This document shows positions 3,570-36,514 of a stretch of 40,625 nt of DNA, piece after piece (position 1 is the first letter of the stretch; each line of letters starts with the position of its first letter). This DNA comes from a virus: UHGV virus genome UHGV-0137877, one strand, 5' to 3'. The notes below the pieces were generated by a model. The model saw only the letters and a list, made by a program, of their open reading frames with translations. It ran no database searches and had not been told where the DNA came from. A program made the translations under genes and the position numbers.

Positions 3570-3646
3570 TTACCGTTGAGGTAATAATTATGCTTATTTG
3601 GTTTGGTGTCAATAGATATGAGTTAAAAAAATTACCCGTAAGGTAA
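3570..3646. promoter_or_regulatory. Leftward early promoter with two operator sites (TTACC-N5-GGTAA at 3570-3584 and 3632-3646)
   Basis: Two perfect 15-bp palindromes flank a minus-strand TTGACA -35-like and ATAATT -10-like hexamer pair. Confidence 0.6.
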
Positions 3647-3703: not shown

Positions 3704-4288
3704 TTATTGTTTGCTTTTTTCGTTCTGGTTGATGACAAATTCAATGTAACTTTCGATCTTTGCTTTCTCGGTTTCGGGTAACAATGCGTAGCGTGAGCGG
3801 TCATAGTTGATAGTCGCAGGGTCGTGCGGGTGAATCAGTAGTTCATATCCGTGACGCCCGAATGCGGATGCAACATTCTCCAGGGTGGAAATGGAAACGC
3901 TGACCTCATTGTTTAACAGGCGGCTGATTGTCACCTGGGCGACGCCGGATGCGCGGTGAAGTTTTCCCTGTGTTGAAAGGTCGCGGCTTTCGCTCATCCA
4001 GCGTTCCAGGTTGTGAGCCGCCAGCTGACCAATGTCGCTTGGGCCGACAGGCTGAAAACCTTCCTGAGAAAGCGAGCGATCGATATCAAGCCAGTTACGG
4101 GGTTTATTGGCGGCAGCTTCAATTTTTCGCGCAACCTGGTCGCCGATAACCTTCTTGCCAAGAGCCCAGCGGTTTACCAGATTTGCCTGAGTTCCAAGTT
4201 TTTCTGCCATCCGCGTCTGAACACCATTGAATTCACGGTCGATCAAGTCGTTGAGATTTTGCCTGCGGACGTCCTGGATACTTTTCAT
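3704..4288 (-). CDS. Prophage repressor (CI-like), two HTH domains, no S24 peptidase domain
   Basis: 194 aa; N-terminal HTH (QTRMAEKLGTQANLVNRWALGKK) and a second HTH-like segment (ASGVAQVTISRLLNNEVSVSISTLENVA); divergent from the cro-like gene. Confidence 0.7.
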   Translation of the reverse strand: MKSIQDVRRQNLNDLIDREFNGVQTRMAEKLGTQANLVNRWALGKKVIGDQVARKIEAAANKPRNWLDIDRSLSQEGFQPVGPSDIGQLAAHNLERWMSESRDLSTQGKLHRASGVAQVTISRLLNNEVSVSISTLENVASAFGRHGYELLIHPHDPATINYDRSRYALLPETEKAKIESYIEFVINQNEKSKQ

Positions 4289-30970: not shown

Positions 30971-30992
30971 AAAAAAGCCCGCAGAGCGGGCT
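30971..30992 (-). terminator. Rho-independent terminator after the DUF2335-like gene
   Basis: AGCCCGC-aga-GCGGGCT followed by a U6 run on the minus strand; overlaps the stop codon. Confidence 0.6.
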
Positions 30993-31540
30993 TACTTTTC
31001 TTCAGGTTTATTGTCTTCAGATTTCTTCTTGATGCTTGGTTTTTGTCTAAGAACGAAAATACCAGCCACTGCAACAACTGTACCGATCACTGTGCCTGCT
31101 AGAACTTCATGACCTGTTAAACCTAATAATGTTGCACAAGCTACTGTAAAAATAGTTGCACTCAGGCCAAACCACTGCCCACGTTTATCTCTATTAATAG
31201 CCCCGTCAAGTGCCTTTTCCTCCATTTTCTGGCGGTGAGCAAACTCCTTCTCCGTCAGCTGGAAGATGCGTTCGGGGGCATCAGGTAAAATATCCTGATA
31301 CCCGCGAAGCAGATAGGGGGGAGGAAGCGGACCCTGAAACGCATGGTGAGCGACAACTATCTCCTGAATTTCAGGGCGATCAAGAACTCTTGTGAAGGCA
31401 TCTGGGTGTTGAATGATCTCGTTACTTAGCCCTTCCTCAACTTCCTCGAACTCAGTTTCTTCGTTATCACTTGGTTGCCCAATAGATTTTTGCATATTTG
31501 TCGAAGGACATTCCTTTAGCTTCTGGTTTTCCTCTTGCAT
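30992..31540 (-). CDS. DUF2335-like membrane protein
   Basis: 182 aa (167 if it starts at the internal ATG 31495); acidic N-terminus, PPPYLL...ERIFQLTEKEFAHRQ core, two C-terminal transmembrane helices, Lys-rich tail. Confidence 0.55.
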   Translation of the reverse strand: MQEENQKLKECPSTNMQKSIGQPSDNEETEFEEVEEGLSNEIIQHPDAFTRVLDRPEIQEIVVAHHAFQGPLPPPYLLRGYQDILPDAPERIFQLTEKEFAHRQKMEEKALDGAINRDKRGQWFGLSATIFTVACATLLGLTGHEVLAGTVIGTVVAVAGIFVLRQKPSIKKKSEDNKPEEK

Positions 31541-31793
31541 TTGAGTTTTTCCCTGTCACTATTGCCCATTTTCCGCCAGCAGGCGCTGCAATTTTTTTTC
31601 CGTTCTTTACTATATATTCAGCATAAACACGATTTTCTGACCGTCTGAGATCGTCTCCGACCATATTCATGTCTCTTGATATAACTTTGACGACAGAGTC
31701 TCTGTTTAAAGCCTTGGCATAGTTGGAGCCAGGAACGATACCCAAAGGGGTGCCAGACTCTATAGCCAGCTCCTTGACATATCTTCTGCTCAT
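31467..31793 (-). CDS. Small basic protein, overlaps the DUF2335-like gene
   Basis: 108 aa from ATG 31793 (GAGG RBS 6 nt upstream); overlaps the next ORF by 29-74 nt in another frame; own promoter with operator. Confidence 0.4.
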   Translation of the reverse strand: MSRRYVKELAIESGTPLGIVPGSNYAKALNRDSVVKVISRDMNMVGDDLRRSENRVYAEYIVKNGKKIAAPAGGKWAIVTGKNSNARGKPEAKGMSFDKYAKIYWATK

Positions 31794-31813
31794 ATGAACC
31801 TCAACCAATCGAC

Positions 31814-31847
31814 TTTACCAATCGGGTAATTTTAAACATGAGTATAA
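31814..31847 (-). promoter_or_regulatory. Promoter with operator site for the 108-aa/DUF2335-like pair
   Basis: Perfect TTACC-aatcg-GGTAA (31814-31828) 14 bp downstream of a minus-strand TATACT -10-like hexamer (31842-31847). Confidence 0.5.
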
Positions 31848-31914: not shown

Positions 31915-32625
31915 TCAGAAGAACCCTGCCTTGTCGTTGATGTACTCCGCGTGAGTCTGGATATCACGCAGGCATTTGCTCACACCAACGATGTAGCAGA
32001 ACATGCTGGTCAGCTCCGCCGCCGCGCCCGATACATCGTGCCCGTCTTCCTGCAACTGGTTCAGCAAATTCATCAGCAGTGAGTTCTCCGTCAGGCCGAG
32101 AACACCAGACGGCGAATGAATCAGGCTACGGTAGCCGGGCTTCAGTGGGGCGCTGTAGGTTTTGTTCTCTATCTTCATTGCCTGCATCACTGCTGATGCT
32201 GTGGCGTTGGCTACCTGGTCGGCAACCATCTTTATGCGTTCTTCCTGCGGGAGCGAGTTTTTAATGTAACTTCCGGTGCGGCGGATCTGAGGAAGAACCT
32301 CACCTGTAACCCATTTACGAAAGCGGTAGGGGATAGTGCCTGGTGTCACCGCATCGCGGCAGCGGAGGATCAGTGTGTAGAGGCCTGACTCGGAGATGAT
32401 GTTGATCTCTTTTACTCGGCTGTCAAAAATTGCACGATGTTCATGCCCTATGTTGAACATAGACCTTTCATCATCATCCAGTTTTTCAAGTGCTTGGGTG
32501 ACGTTTTGGATACGCAGCGCACTACAAACGTCTTGGGCTACAAACCATGGTTGGCCATCGATAATGATGGAACGGATAGGGTTAACAGATTCAAATTTGA
32601 AGATGGCAGTTTGAGCATTAGCCAT
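31915..32625 (-). CDS. Antirepressor (BRO-N domain plus Ant-type C-terminal domain)
   Basis: ORF track 31915..32640; preferred ATG 32625 after GGAGAT; N-terminal FKFESVNPIRSIIIDGQPWFVAQDVCSAL is a classic BRO-N start. Confidence 0.8.
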   Translation of the reverse strand: MANAQTAIFKFESVNPIRSIIIDGQPWFVAQDVCSALRIQNVTQALEKLDDDERSMFNIGHEHRAIFDSRVKEINIISESGLYTLILRCRDAVTPGTIPYRFRKWVTGEVLPQIRRTGSYIKNSLPQEERIKMVADQVANATASAVMQAMKIENKTYSAPLKPGYRSLIHSPSGVLGLTENSLLMNLLNQLQEDGHDVSGAAAELTSMFCYIVGVSKCLRDIQTHAEYINDKAGFF

Positions 32626-32781
32626 GGTGGTTATCTCCACTTAGTGATTTTAATCACCACCGCAACGCCAATTACTGGTGGTGAACTGGACAAGGTTGGC
32701 GTACCGGCCTAAGTGGTACCGGCGTCCTTTCGGACCCCTGCCCAGCCCACCATAATTCGGATATAGCTGTGCTTAACGCAT

Positions 32782-32803
32782 AAAAAAACCACGTCTGGCG
32801 TGG
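32782..32803 (-). terminator. Rho-independent terminator between the two antirepressor genes
   Basis: CCACG-ccaga-CGTGG followed by a U7 run on the minus strand. Confidence 0.6.
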
Positions 32804-32894
32804 TATGCGCCACTTAGTAACTCGGGACGCCAATCCCGGCACTGGATTTTGCCAGTGCTCAATTACTATGGCACAAGAGGAGTGCGATGTAAAT

Positions 32895-32909
32895 TTACCG
32901 CAAAGGTAA
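32895..32909. promoter_or_regulatory. Operator site (TTACC-gcaaa-GGTAA) downstream of the small antirepressor gene
   Basis: Perfect 15-bp palindrome of the operator family. Confidence 0.5.
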
Positions 32910-32940
32910 ATATAAGCACTCCACTTGGTAATTGCAAACC

Positions 32941-33198
32941 TTATCTGGTTTGTTTTCGTAATTGTTCGGCACAATAGTCGAGATGTGTTTGCAGATCCTG
33001 CATAGACATCTGTGAGCTGGTGACGTAGTTAATCAGTGCAGTCAGTTCGGCAAGTGGGCCATCGACATTAAATCCATCCTTATCGAGATCCCGGAGTAAT
33101 TTCATCAAGTGCGATCCCTCCACCAGTGACCTGACGCCTCCCGGCGTGTGAATCCTTTCGGTAAATCCGTCTTCCAGTGGATAGTGATACTGCTGCAT
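32941..33198 (-). CDS. Small antirepressor-like protein (Ant C-terminal domain only)
   Basis: ORF track 32941..33213; preferred ATG 33198 after GGAGAAG; roughly half its residues are identical to the C-terminal 85 residues of the 31915-32625 antirepressor (IHTPGGV...LMKLL..L...G..V.G..AELT...). Confidence 0.65.
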   Translation of the reverse strand: MQQYHYPLEDGFTERIHTPGGVRSLVEGSHLMKLLRDLDKDGFNVDGPLAELTALINYVTSSQMSMQDLQTHLDYCAEQLRKQTR

Positions 33199-33220
33199 CT
33201 TAATCTTCTCCATGCAATAA

Positions 33221-33236
33221 CTGTATATTTATACAG
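33221..33236. promoter_or_regulatory. LexA (SOS) box
   Basis: CTGTATATTTATACAG, a perfect CTGT-N8-ACAG palindrome with AT-rich centre, 8 bp upstream of the small antirepressor ORF. Confidence 0.8.
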
Positions 33237-33275
33237 TAGCAAATAATTTGTTTGCTATCCAGCACGTTTTGCAAA

Positions 33276-33347
33276 TTACCTGAAAGGTAATATCTATTCG
33301 TATTCACAGTCTTTCTATCCATATGTGGTTTTTCAGGTAATAGAATA
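33276..33347. promoter_or_regulatory. Tailspike promoter region: operator (33276-33290), ATGTGGTT (33323-33330), GGTAAT/TAGAAT -10-like
   Basis: Perfect TTACC-tgaaa-GGTAA; same layout as the 14657-14734 region. Confidence 0.55.
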
Positions 33348-33394: not shown

Positions 33395-36300
33395 ATGACG
33401 GTCTCAACCGAAGTTGACCACAACGAATACACAGGTAACGGCGTTACGACATCGTTTCCGTATACTTTTCGAATTTTCAGAAAATCAGACCTGGTTGTTC
33501 AGGTGTCTGACCTGAACGGGAACGTAACAGAATTGGTTCTGGATACCGGTTATACGGTAACTGGGGCGGGAACTTATAGTGGCGGTTCTGTGGTTCTTCC
33601 GTCGCCGCTTGCTACTGGATGGCGAATTACGATAGATCGTGTGCTTGATGTAGTGCAGGAGACAGACCTTCGCAATCAGGGAAAATTTTTCCCCGAAGTG
33701 CATGAAGATGCTTTTGACTACCTGACGATGCTGATCCAGCAATGTTTTGGGTGGTTCAGACGTGCATTGATGAAACCATCTTTGCTTGCAAAATATTACG
33801 ATGCAAAGCAAAACAAAATTTCTAACCTTGCAGATCCATCACTTGAACAGGACGCTGTAAATAATCGCTCAATGCGTAATTATGTCGATGCTGCAATCGC
33901 CGGGGTTGTTGGTGGTTTTGGTTGGTTTATTCAGTATGGTTCTGGGGCTGTGTACCGAACGTTCCAGGATAAAATGCGTGATGCTATTAGCCCCAAAGAT
34001 TTTGGAGCTGTTGGTGATGGTATAAATGACGATTCCACTGCAATAAGCGCGTGCCTTGAAGCCTCATCTCCAGGTTATAAAATTGACGGATTAGGGCTTA
34101 CTTTTAAAGTATCAACTCTTCCGGATGTCAGCCGATTTAAAAATGCTCGTTTTTTATTTGAGAGAATACCGGGTCAGCCTCTTTTTTATGCTTCTGAAGA
34201 TTTTATCCAGGGAGAGTTATTTAAAATTACAGATACACCGTGGTACAACGCCTGGACGCAGGATAAAACGTTTGTATATGACAATGTCATCTATGCGCCT
34301 TTTATGGCTGGAGACCGCCATGGTGTAAATAACCTCCATGTTGCATGGGTTCGCTCAGGAGATGACGGGAAGACCTGGACAACGCCGGAATGGCTTACAG
34401 ATTTACATGAAAACTATCCCACAGTTAACTATCACTGCATGAGTATGGGGGTTGTCAGAAATCGCCTTTTTGCTGTAATTGAGACGCGGACCGTGAGCGG
34501 AAATAAACTGCAGGTTGCAGAGTTGTGGGATCGCCCAATGAGTCGCAGCCTTCGCGTTTATGGTGGTATAACGAAAGCAGCAAATCAGCAAGTCGCTTAT
34601 ATTCGCATTACTGATCACGGATTATTTGCTGGTGATTTTGTCAACTTCTCAAACTCTGGTGTTACAGGTGTTACCGGGAATATGACGGTGACTACTGTTA
34701 TTGATAAAAATACTTTTACAGTTACGACGCAAAATACCCAGGATGTGGATCAGAATAACGAGGGTAGATACTGGAGTTTTGGTACATCATTTCACTCGTC
34801 ACCATGGAGAAAAACCAGTCTTGGAACTATTCCTTCTTTTGTTGACGGAAGCACTCCTGTTACTGAGATTCACAGTTTTGCGACGATTAGCGATAACAGT
34901 TTTGCTGTTGGCTACCATAATGGTGATATTGGTCCACGCGAGCTTGGGATACTCTATTTCTCTGATGCTTTCGGTTCTCCTGGTAGCTTTGTTCGCAGAC
35001 GCATACCTGCAGAATATGAGGCGAATGCATCTGAGCCATGTGTAAAATATTATGATGGCATTCTGTATCTGACGACCAGGGGGACATTAAGTACTCAACC
35101 CGGTAGTTCATTGCACAGAAGCTCTGATTTAGGTACATCATGGAATTCTCTTCGCTTCCCAAATAATGTTCATCACTCAAACCTTCCTTTTGCCAAAGTT
35201 GGCGATGAGCTGATTATTTTTGGCAGTGAGCGCGCATTTGGTGAGTGGGAAGGAGGAGAACCTGATAACCGTTATGCAGGAAATTATCCAAGAACATTTA
35301 TGACCAGAGTTAACGTCAATGAGTGGAGTCTGGATAATGTAGAGTGGGTTAATGTTACTGATCAGATTTATCAGGGCGGAATAGTTAACTCTGCGGTTGG
35401 TGTTGGTTCAGTTTGTATCAAAGACAACTGGCTGTACTACATTTTCGGTGGGGAAGACTTTCTAAACCCATGGAGCATAGGGGATAACAACAGAAAATAT
35501 CCTTATGTTCACGATGGTCACCCGGCTGATTTGTATTGTTTCAGGGTGAAAATTAAACAGGAAGAATTTGTTTCAAGGGATTTTGTCTACGGAGCCACTC
35601 CTAACAGAACGCTTCCTACTTTTATGTCGACGTCAGGCGTGAGGACGGTTCCTGTACCCGTTGATTTCACAGATGATGTTGCCGTCCAGTCACTGACTGT
35701 CCATGCAGGTACATCAGGACAAGTTCGCGCGGAAGTCAAACTTGAGGGTAATTACGCCATTATTGCGAAGAAAGTACCGTCTGATGATGTTACCGCTCAG
35801 AGATTAATCGTTAGCGGAGGTGAAACAACGTCTTCAGCAGATGGTGCAATGATAACGTTGCATGGTTCCGGAAGCAGTACTCCACGTCGCGCGGTATATA
35901 ACGCACTCGAACATCTTTTTGAGAACGGAGATGTTAAACCTTATCTTGATAATGTAAATGCTCTTGGTGGTCCGGGAAACAGGTTCTCGACAGTTTATCT
36001 TGGCTCCAATCCTGTGGTTACCAGTGACGGAACATTAAAGACAGAGCCGGTCTCTCCTGACGAAGCATTGCTGGATGCCTGGGGTGACGTCAGGTATATC
36101 GCTTATAAATGGCTGAACGCTGTCGCTATAAAGGGGGAAGAAGGGGCGAGGATACATCATGGTGTAATCGCGCAGCAACTTCGTGATGTTCTTATTTCTC
36201 ACGGACTCATGGAAGAAGAAAGCACAACATGCCGCTATGCCTTTCTTTGCTATGACGATTATCCCGCAGTATATGATGACGTCATTACTGGCCAAAGGGA

Positions 36301-36514
36301 AATGCCGCTGACTGATAATGACGGGAGCATCATTGTTGATGAGGATGATAATCCAGTGATGGTAATGGAAGACATCATTGAGCGCGTTGAAATAACGCCA
36401 GCAGGATCTAGATGGGGGGTCAGACCTGATCTCTTATTCTATATCGAGGCGGCATGGCAGCGCAGAGAAATGGATAAGATAAAAGAGCGGATTCAGTCTC
36501 TGGAAGAACGTTAA
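33395..36514 (+). CDS. Tailspike: endosialidase with gp17-like N-terminal anchor and C-terminal self-cleaving chaperone domain
   Basis: 1039 aa; N-terminus resembles the particle-binding domain of T7 gp17; two Asp-box motifs (SGDDGKTW, SSDLGTSW); C-terminal NPVVTSDGTLKTEP...HHGVIAQQLRDV resembles S74-type chaperone domains. Confidence 0.75.
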   Translation: MTVSTEVDHNEYTGNGVTTSFPYTFRIFRKSDLVVQVSDLNGNVTELVLDTGYTVTGAGTYSGGSVVLPSPLATGWRITIDRVLDVVQETDLRNQGKFFPEVHEDAFDYLTMLIQQCFGWFRRALMKPSLLAKYYDAKQNKISNLADPSLEQDAVNNRSMRNYVDAAIAGVVGGFGWFIQYGSGAVYRTFQDKMRDAISPKDFGAVGDGINDDSTAISACLEASSPGYKIDGLGLTFKVSTLPDVSRFKNARFLFERIPGQPLFYASEDFIQGELFKITDTPWYNAWTQDKTFVYDNVIYAPFMAGDRHGVNNLHVAWVRSGDDGKTWTTPEWLTDLHENYPTVNYHCMSMGVVRNRLFAVIETRTVSGNKLQVAELWDRPMSRSLRVYGGITKAANQQVAYIRITDHGLFAGDFVNFSNSGVTGVTGNMTVTTVIDKNTFTVTTQNTQDVDQNNEGRYWSFGTSFHSSPWRKTSLGTIPSFVDGSTPVTEIHSFATISDNSFAVGYHNGDIGPRELGILYFSDAFGSPGSFVRRRIPAEYEANASEPCVKYYDGILYLTTRGTLSTQPGSSLHRSSDLGTSWNSLRFPNNVHHSNLPFAKVGDELIIFGSERAFGEWEGGEPDNRYAGNYPRTFMTRVNVNEWSLDNVEWVNVTDQIYQGGIVNSAVGVGSVCIKDNWLYYIFGGEDFLNPWSIGDNNRKYPYVHDGHPADLYCFRVKIKQEEFVSRDFVYGATPNRTLPTFMSTSGVRTVPVPVDFTDDVAVQSLTVHAGTSGQVRAEVKLEGNYAIIAKKVPSDDVTAQRLIVSGGETTSSADGAMITLHGSGSSTPRRAVYNALEHLFENGDVKPYLDNVNALGGPGNRFSTVYLGSNPVVTSDGTLKTEPVSPDEALLDAWGDVRYIAYKWLNAVAIKGEEGARIHHGVIAQQLRDVLISHGLMEEESTTCRYAFLCYDDYPAVYDDVITGQREMPLTDNDGSIIVDEDDNPVMVMEDIIERVEITPAGSRWGVRPDLLFYIEAAWQRREMDKIKERIQSLEER

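Follow-up and report, generated by a model that had tools for sequence, protein, structure and literature searches.

The virus genome UHGV-0137877, a DNA of 40,625 nucleotides (nt) referred to here in its entirety as the window, carries a minus-strand locus, transcribed from position 33300 towards 31900, in which two antirepressor genes, ant85 and ant236, are separated by a spacer of about 300 base pairs (bp). We consider it probable that this locus is a secondary immunity and induction module, in which a switch of the type described for phage SPC32H is joined head to tail with an RNA gate of the type present in the immI operon of P1 and at isrK of Gifsy-1. Read 5' to 3' on the minus strand, it consists of a TTACC-N5-GGTAA site, a LexA (SOS) box, ant85, a palindrome with a second TTACC-N5-GGTAA site, a promoter-like site, a structured RNA region (32858-32626) and ant236 (Table 1). 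By sequence similarity, the source phage belongs to the epsilon15-like podoviruses (genus Uetakevirus) and is present as a prophage. In DNA comparison, its 1.6-kb locus is 92-98% identical to those of HEMP4, ZX5, TL-2011b, phiV10 and others, and 549 of 5426 complete Escherichia coli genomes match it. A first guess of a P22-like (CUS-3) phage was dropped, since both DNA and protein matches point to epsilon15-like Uetakevirus.

Table 1 Features of the two-antirepressor locus and of the associated repressor system in the window
Feature	Position	Strand	Remarks
rep	3704..4288	-	Phage repressor; both antirepressors presumably target it, and it presumably binds TTACC-N5-GGTAA
TTACC-N5-GGTAA sites, all 13	starts at 3570, 3632, 4344, 4392, 4729, 6631, 6693, 11488, 11506, 14657, 31815, 32895, 33276	.
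TTACC-TGAAA-GGTAA	33276..33290	.	Putative Rep operator; divergent region between ant85 and tailspike gene; 1 nt 5' of TTGCAA -35-like hexamer
LexA (SOS) box TACTGTATAAATATACAGTT	33219..33238	.	Core CTGT-N8-ACAG at 33221-33236; 22 nt 5' of ant85 ATG
ant85	32941..33198	-	85-aa antirepressor, orthologue of SPC32H Ant
Imperfect palindrome GGAGTGC...GCACTCC	32879..32922	.	44 bp; encloses TTACC-GCAAA-GGTAA (32895-32909); between ant85 stop codon and IsrK promoter
Predicted IsrK promoter	32865..32893	-	-35 TTTACA (32893-32888), 17-nt spacer, extended -10 TGcCATAGT (32873-32865); start about 32858
IsrK-type small RNA, equivalent of the c4-a1b1 leader	32782..32858	-	RF01394
IsrK hairpin 1	32858-32839	-	GCACTGG-CAAAAT-CCAGTGC; seen in sequence
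IsrK hairpin 2	32838-32823	-	a1 in loop
a1	32833-32827	-	UUGGCGU; IsrK hairpin-2 loop
b1	32817-32810	-	CUAAGUGG; IsrK linker
Clamp helix	32776..32810	-	GCGCAU (32810-32805) / AUGCGU (32781-32776); minimum-free-energy fold; encloses terminator
IsrK Rho-independent terminator	stem 32804-32788, seven T to 32782	-	Terminator scan
C4-type antisense RNA	32674..32757	-	RF01695
b'	32716-32709	-	CCACUUAG; C4 hairpin-2 loop
a'	32702-32696	-	ACGCCAA; C4 3' internal loop
ant236 leader	32626..32684	-	a2 hairpin and b2
a2	32671-32665	-	UUGGCGU; loop of leader hairpin 32684-32654
b2	32644-32637	-	CUAAGUGG; ant236 leader
ant236	31915..32625	-	BRO-N (residues 17-112), linker, C-terminal domain (about 150-236) paralogous to ant85
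Next TTACC-N5-GGTAA site	31815..31829	.	Directly after -10-like hexamer; precedes ORF108 and DUF2335 membrane protein gene; downstream edge of the unit

The proposed RNA gate lies in the spacer. Only three Rfam matches in the whole window exceed their gathering scores, a tRNA, IsrK and C4, and the latter two fill the spacer between ant85 and ant236. The 259-nt RNA spanning 32858-32600 folds at -105.8 kcal/mol (z = -4.4), a stability equalled by none of 200 shuffled sequences. Two suggestions of the original prediction, which had been made from the DNA alone, are thereby borne out, namely that the spacer is structured and that a small-RNA control layer lies within it. A protein-coding role for the spacer was rejected, because the two RNA genes account for this DNA and no Pfam match was obtained for a 100-residue open reading frame (ORF) at 32672-32974, for a 34-residue ORF at 32709-32813 or for the ORF called 'ash' in ZX5.

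With 67.2 bits, the IsrK match (RF01394) exceeds its gathering score of 50, and it covers all 77 model positions. In a permissive scan, the family c4-a1b1 (RF03163), described as the 'a1, b1 targets of C4 antisense RNA', also appeared at 32819-32871, overlapping the 5' half of IsrK, with 40.6 bits just below its threshold of 46.7. The layout typical of IsrK is present in full, with two 5' hairpins and a terminator, a predicted promoter of its own and an antirepressor gene downstream, and the minimum-free-energy prediction reproduces the fold. The CACTGG hairpin and the terminator that had been pointed out in the original prediction correspond to hairpin 1 and to the terminator of IsrK, respectively. 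The predicted transcription start agrees with position 1 of the Rfam model at 32858; the -10 block TGTGCCATAGT is kept in five Uetakevirus relatives, and a promoter lies at the same offset in other phages. From the ant85 stop codon to IsrK, the terminator scan detected none on the minus strand. The clamp helix, which lies outside the Rfam model, can form only in RNA that has read through the terminator, and its strands change in a compensatory manner to GCGACA/UGUCGC(U) in sal3, VT2-Sakai and Gifsy-1. The proposal that the region acts as an attenuator holds in part: the terminator is that of IsrK itself, and at the homologous Gifsy-1 locus it is partly read through (PMC4825925). Terminator read-through, activation of the antirepressor in trans and Hfq binding have been demonstrated for the Gifsy-1 IsrK only (PMC4825925).

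Immediately downstream, the C4 match (RF01695) reaches 66 bits against a gathering score of 45 over all 87 model positions, and its Y-shaped fold is likewise recovered by minimum-free-energy prediction. Its 3' end, ...CACC-A-CCA, resembles a tRNA acceptor; in P1, C4 is freed from its precursor by RNase P. The two loops of C4 and the two sets of candidate targets are exactly complementary, a1 and a2 to a' over 7 nt and b1 and b2 to b' over 8 nt. The b2 site overlaps the Shine-Dalgarno sequence GGAG of ant236 (32638-32635), which is located 9 nt ahead of the ATG at 32625, and the leader can alternatively fold with both the Shine-Dalgarno sequence and the AUG paired. The stretch from the 3' end of C4 to the ATG of ant236 contains no ORF, icd-like or other, and it is the Shine-Dalgarno sequence of ant236 itself on which b2 lies; the RNA is therefore a member of the C4 family in an operon unlike that of P1. 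Nor does any ORF comparable to orf45 of Gifsy-1 reach ant236, the only candidate being a 14-codon ORF that ends inside C4. A possible third b-site, CCAAGUGGAG (32927-32918), was rejected, as it does not covary and is kept by phiV10 despite a different b type.

Comparison across phages supports these assignments. IsrK followed by C4 was found in tandem in all eight relatives examined first, four of them Uetakevirus-like (phiV10, ZX5, Tyrion and Klebsiella ST11-OXA245phi3.2) and four unrelated (Hafnia yong2, Yersinia YpM41, Salmonella 118970_sal3 and VT2-Sakai). At 17 of 17 loci, a1/a'/a2 and b1/b'/b2 agree inside each phage while their sequences differ between phages, which constitutes covariation; at each of these loci, b2 either ends 8-16 nt ahead of the start codon or overlaps it. 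The stem of the a2 hairpin shows three pairs with compensatory changes among nine loci. Because b' and b2 covary with each other, and not solely with b1, direct pairing of C4 with the Shine-Dalgarno region is implied. Among the E. coli Uetakeviruses, two a-types (ACGCCAA or AGACCAA) and three b-types (CCACUUAG, CCUUUUAG or CCUUUGUAG) occur in five combinations, although Rep is at least 99% identical. In every phage examined, the IsrK-C4 cassette precedes an antirepressor-type gene, the other domains encountered being ORF6N, ORF6N with P22_AR_C, and Rha; in its behaviour, the RNA gate is therefore a portable controller.

These RNA genes also bear on an annotation. Matches to PF10554, the 'Ash protein family', in ORFs of 118970_sal3 and yong2 coincide exactly with the IsrK and C4 genes, and in ZX5 a 37-residue 'ash family protein' ORF lies over C4. 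The reading frames over the spacer of the window (equivalent to 32640-32860) gave no Pfam match. The Ash family, and the annotation derived from it, may thus largely represent translated DNA of conserved non-coding RNAs.

Upstream of the RNA gate, ant85 and its control region resemble the switch of SPC32H. This Rep-Ant-LexA lytic switch was reportedly characterized by Kim and Ryu (2013, J Virol) and by Kim et al. (2016, PNAS; PDB 5D50/5D4Z). Secondary sources state that SPC32H Rep binds DNA as a tetramer and that a tetrameric Ant splits it into dimers; they also place Ant-type antirepressors of this kind under LexA control, and the 86-residue Ant domain is a complete Rep-binding antirepressor by itself, as far as the entry PDB 5D50 indicates. 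The ant85 ORF extends over 32941-33213 (90 aa), and the ATG at 33198, preceded by GGAG at 33211-33208, is its likely start; the resulting length of 85 aa agrees with the annotation in phiV10, ZX5 and RefSeq. A phmmer search against the PDB matched the protein to 5D50_E, 'Anti-repressor protein' (E 4.1e-47, 83 aligned residues), tblastn gave 88% identity to SPC32H ant, and PHROG 450 was matched as well. Ant85 is at least 97.6% identical among the E. coli Uetakeviruses. The small antirepressor is under-annotated: RefSeq (WP_001188252.1) and most phage records list a 'hypothetical protein', and Tyrion gp21 is called at 54 aa and should be 86. No NCBIfam model matched any of the four local proteins.

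The predicted LexA box ahead of ant85 agrees with the consensus at 18 of 20 positions, and its core reads CTGTATAAATATACAG from 33236 to 33221. Its position is homologous to that of the SPC32H box, in which SPC32N carries a C-to-A change (ACAG to AAAG). The deposited sequences of SPC32H and SPC32N differ at only two positions in the 5.2-kb ant locus (about 2.5 kb on each side of ant), and one of these alters the LexA box from CTGTATGTTTATACAG to CTGTATGTTTATAAAG. According to Kim and Ryu (2013), SPC32N is said to be SPC32H with a point mutation in the LexA box that renders Ant constitutive. The TTACC-N5-GGTAA site further upstream, at 33276-33290, recurs at the corresponding place in SPC32H, phiV10, ZX5, Tyrion and a Klebsiella phage. 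A promoter scan returned no promoter for ant85, and by eye no hexamers were convincing, the best candidate being TTGCAA and ACAAAT at a spacing of 17 nt.

The presumed target of the antirepressors is encoded far from the locus. The rep ORF matches PDB 5D50_A, 'Repressor' (E 3.5e-42), and is 43% identical to SPC32H Rep; it is the one Rep-type repressor gene identified in the window, the remaining ORFs of which were not screened systematically. The inverted repeat at 32895-32909, which the original prediction had called an operator site, belongs to a set of 13 TTACC-N5-GGTAA sites in the window, where chance would give 0.6 (about 20-fold enrichment); none of 100 shuffled sequences reached 13. 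SPC32H has 18 such sites against 0.62 expected (about 30-fold). The rep-cro intergenic region contains the motif both in the window phage, twice, and in SPC32H, and one of the two sites in the window overlaps the -35 element and spacer of a rightward promoter. The sites are most likely Rep operators. They are spread genome-wide, mostly in intergenic regions, without clustering at one immunity region, and in this respect resemble the many C1 operators of P1. At the promoter candidates of both ant85 and IsrK, the operator ends 1 nt 5' of a TTnnCA hexamer and is centred near -44. The palindrome around the IsrK-proximal operator has perfect 18-nt arms in phiV10 and different yet complementary outer arms (ATGGGT/ACCCAT) in the Klebsiella phage; it could fold as a hairpin in the 3'-terminal part of the ant85 mRNA or serve as an enlarged binding site for a protein.

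The second antirepressor gene, ant236, occupies an ORF at 31915-32640 whose likely start, the ATG at 32625, yields 236 aa, as in RefSeq. Both proteins named in the original prediction, an 85-residue protein followed by a BRO-N plus Ant-like protein, are indeed encoded on the minus strand, the BRO-N domain being recognized by Pfam (PF02498, residues 17-112, E 9.6e-20, 71.5 bits against a gathering score of 25.6). The C-terminal resemblance of the two proteins reflects paralogy (E 4e-17), at an identity somewhat lower than the half that had been claimed: 33 of 78 positions, or 42%, in the protein alignment. The label 'Ant C-terminal domain' was mistaken, as neither protein matches Pfam ANT/KilAC or P22_AR_C at E <= 0.01. 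The shared domain, for which there is no Pfam model, is by its sequence matches the SPC32H-Ant fold and not ANT/KilAC; residues 155-231 of Ant236 match PDB chain 5D50_E (E 8.8e-14), and the protein also matches PHROG antirepressor families. An AlphaFold2 model of ORF236 built from the single sequence without an alignment was unusable, with a predicted local distance difference test score (pLDDT) of 37 and a predicted template modelling score (pTM) of 0.26.

Whichever small and large forms are compared, within or between phages, their identity is about 40%, and the duplication is therefore old; homogenisation or co-evolution of the paralogues inside genomes was rejected on the same figure. Orthologues of ant236 in ZX5, TL-2011b, Tyrion and the Klebsiella phage retain the C-terminal Ant-like domain. 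In phiV10 the BRO-N antirepressor (phiV10p22/p23) is frameshifted inside this domain, giving 194 aa followed by a 29-aa ORF, so that this well-studied phage is without an intact second antirepressor. Overexpression of the ZX5 orthologue lowered the number of lysogens about 1000-fold, from 1e9 to 1e6 (PMC9782041). Across E. coli phages with a common Rep, the C-terminal domain of Ant236 is nearly invariant, and the N-terminal 75 or so residues vary even among otherwise near-identical phages. Where ant85, Rep and the Ant236 C-terminus are near-identical, the diverged parts are the C4/IsrK specificity region and the first 75 or so BRO-N residues; the spacer is about 80% identical, versus 98-100% for ant85. 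This pattern suggests that the C4/IsrK region and the start of BRO-N may form a local hotspot of recombination or diversification.

Taken together, these parts suggest the following mode of action, in which we infer the direction of each regulatory step and the processing of the RNAs. LexA would silence ant85 until DNA damage removes it, whereupon Ant85 would be made and would inactivate Rep. About 80 nt past the end of ant85, and not separated from it by a terminator, the promoter flanked by a putative Rep operator would start an RNA, most copies of which would stop at the IsrK terminator to give a short IsrK carrying a1 and b1. Some transcripts would continue through C4, with a' and b', into the leader, with a2 and b2, and ant236. 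C4, whether free or inside the transcript, would pair with a2 and b2 and, through the overlap of b2 with the Shine-Dalgarno sequence, keep Ant236 from being translated. The a1 and b1 sites of IsrK would compete for C4, and an excess of IsrK RNA would titrate C4 and permit the synthesis of Ant236. Such an excess could follow the removal of Rep or arise by read-through from the SOS-induced ant85 transcript. Ant236 would in turn reinforce derepression, because its domain is of the same Rep-binding type as that of Ant85. Delivered by a superinfecting phage, Ant236 would act as an anti-immunity factor unless the C4 of the resident prophage matches. The pictures drawn for Gifsy-1 and for P1 could be reconciled by a competition between IsrK (a1/b1) and the leader (a2/b2) for binding to C4 (a'/b').

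Several observations weigh against this combined switch. The transcripts, RNA processing and binding events proposed for this phage are predictions from its sequence, and the proposed binding of Rep by the C-terminal domain of Ant236 is suggested solely by the 42% identity to Ant85. Because the operator abuts the -35 element on its upstream side, near -44, Rep may either repress the IsrK promoter or activate it, as lambda CI does at PRM. The coupling through orf45 in Gifsy-1 is not transferable, because no comparable ORF reaches ant236. The second antirepressor is dispensable for a viable phage, because SPC32H works with only the small Ant and ant236 of phiV10 is frameshifted. Physical coupling of ant85 to IsrK is likewise not essential, because an insertion of about 1.1 kb separates them in TL-2011b.

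The element could instead work purely as in Gifsy-1, that is, as an mRNA leader with alternative folds and a short trans-activating IsrK, in which 'C4' is no free repressor and RNA-based immunity does not arise. The sole experimental study of an IsrK-C4-antirepressor locus did find that IsrK activates and that the read-through mRNA is translationally silent (PMC4825925), and both the leader fold with paired Shine-Dalgarno sequence and AUG and the covarying clamp helix, confined to read-through RNA, would suit such a leader. This account is unlikely, given the stable, processed STnc1160 at the C4 position (PMC4825925) and the tRNA-like NCCA end of the C4 fold; moreover, the covariation of b' with b2 implies direct pairing of C4 with the Shine-Dalgarno sequence, and the coupling ORF is absent here. 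An entirely different proposal, already put forward in the original prediction, is that the two antirepressors are aimed at different repressors, Ant85 for example at its own Rep and Ant236 at those of other prophages, resulting in cross-induction. The paralogues are old and distinct, at about 40% identity in every phage without homogenisation, antirepressor cross-talk between Salmonella prophages is documented (PMC7380047), and the N-terminal 75 residues of Ant236 vary between near-identical phages. We nevertheless regard separate targets as quite unlikely: both proteins contain the same domain, a single Rep-type gene was identified in the window, the Ant236 C-terminus is nearly invariant with the same Rep, and the ZX5 orthologue affects the lysogeny of ZX5 itself. 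The evident contrast between the two genes appears to lie in their control, a LexA box versus an RNA gate.

It is highly improbable that the BRO-N protein is no antirepressor at all and serves as a DNA-binding regulator or a host-takeover protein, with the common C-terminal domain used only for oligomerisation. BRO-N function is poorly defined, phiV10 tolerates truncation, and a secondary source describes SPC32H Ant as a tetramer, which would allow the shared domain to act chiefly in assembly; against this stand the activity of the SPC32H 86-residue domain as a complete antirepressor (PDB 5D50), the consistent location of the cassette ahead of antirepressor-type genes and the overexpression phenotype in ZX5.

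The combined switch also admits an extension that we consider possible, if doubtful. As no terminator separates ant85 from IsrK, SOS-induced transcripts probably carry a1 and b1. The 3' end of the ant85 mRNA might then act as an a1/b1 'sponge' that neutralises C4, licenses Ant236 and commits the prophage to lysis in an SOS feed-forward, while reshuffled a and b sites would define RNA immunity types among E. coli Uetakevirus prophages with a common Rep and Ant85. If so, whether a superinfecting relative can induce a resident prophage would depend on the a/b types.

Beyond ant236, a 108-residue protein whose function is not known (PHROG 10654) and a DUF2335 membrane protein are encoded on the same strand at 30992-31808, preceded by a promoter-like site; the terminator scan found no terminator between the ant236 stop codon and the site at 31815-31829. 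On the other side of the locus, the tailspike encoded at 33395-36514 has an N-terminus of the epsilon15 type joined to a complete endosialidase (K1 capsule depolymerase) and its C-terminal chaperone domain. Near-identical prophages are present in E. coli isolates from blood and cerebrospinal fluid.

All of the parts fall into families already described, and P1 and Gifsy-1 provide precedents for the logic; the locus is thus an ordinary but neatly assembled switch, with no new kind of element, and it does not overturn current understanding. What is new is modest, namely the combination of parts, the antirepressor paralogy, a Shine-Dalgarno sequence that is occluded directly with no icd or orf45 step, and the several a/b types on a common Rep; a literature search found no paper describing any of these for Uetakevirus phages. 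For annotation, the locus is of value because neither RNA gene is annotated in RefSeq and the name 'Ash family protein' is given to ORFs that overlie them; the study of ZX5, the one experimental paper on a close relative, examined the BRO-N antirepressor and overlooked the small Ant, the LexA box and the RNAs (PMC9782041). The locus furthermore joins three literatures that are usually separate, on SPC32H Rep/Ant, P1 c4 and Gifsy-1 IsrK, and a 2025 review lists IsrK and c4 as unrelated entries (PMC12197685). It offers a compact system in which to ask why two differently controlled antirepressors that share a domain are maintained in one phage, and a test case for an IsrK-C4 cassette conferring RNA heteroimmunity of the P1/P7 kind outside P1.

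Among known systems, the immunity region of P4 (CI RNA with seqA, seqB and seqC) is similar in that a processed small RNA pairs with complementary sites both up- and downstream in its own transcript. In P4, this pairing leads to premature transcription termination of the replication genes and not to a translation block of an antirepressor. SPC32H shares with the window phage its genus, the position of ant beside the tailspike gene, the LexA box, the adjacent TTACC-N5-GGTAA site and a homologous Rep. It differs in having a terminator hairpin directly after ant and neither IsrK, C4 nor a BRO-N antirepressor, and its Rep is only 43% identical. The immI region of P22 (mnt-arc-ant, with sar) likewise places a podovirus antirepressor by the tailspike gene and silences it with a small RNA at the ribosome-binding site (PMC12197685); however, sar is a cis-antisense RNA from the opposite strand, transcription is controlled by the Arc and Mnt proteins, and no component is homologous to those found here.

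Gifsy-1, with isrK-orf45(STnc1160)-anrP-isrJ, has an identical RNA architecture of IsrK, C4 and an antirepressor with b2 on its Shine-Dalgarno sequence. There, IsrK lies at 34240-34316 and is followed by a C4 match of 69 bits at 34131-34214, where the authors placed 'orf45/STnc1160', and by anrP. Some transcripts pass the IsrK terminator to give a long, translationally silent RNA that the short IsrK activates in trans, an effect attributed by the authors to translation of orf45, a small ORF overlapping the C4 element (Hershko-Shalev et al. 2016, PMC4825925). The same study detected STnc1160 as a stable processed RNA, at the position of the C4 match, and remarked on the resemblance to P4 seqA/CI, IsrK being a structural homologue of P4 seqA (PMC4825925). 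Unlike Ant236, AnrP is an ORF6N protein without similarity to it; the window phage has no ORF of orf45 length and no isrJ, the Gifsy-1 locus lies beside Q in a lambdoid phage and not beside a tailspike gene, and the LexA-controlled antirepressor of Gifsy-1 is located elsewhere and is unrelated. The immI operon of P1 and P7 was reportedly described by Citron and Schuster (1990) as c4-icd-ant1/2. Expression of ant in P1 is blocked by C4, with the C1 repressor as a further control on the operon (PMC8198154, PMC12197685), and the heteroimmunity of P1 and P7 rests on their c4 RNAs (PMC12197685). The present locus differs in that it has no icd-like ORF, that b2 lies on the Shine-Dalgarno sequence of ant, that the a1/b1 segment is a terminated small RNA (IsrK), and that the antirepressor is unrelated to P1 Ant in a different type of phage, a podovirus, with a different repressor family. 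It agrees with P1 and P7 in having C4 5' of the antirepressor in one transcript, with a1/b1 upstream and a2/b2 downstream on the ribosome-binding site, in placing the operon also under a probable operator of the main repressor, and in specificities that differ between phages with a common main repressor.

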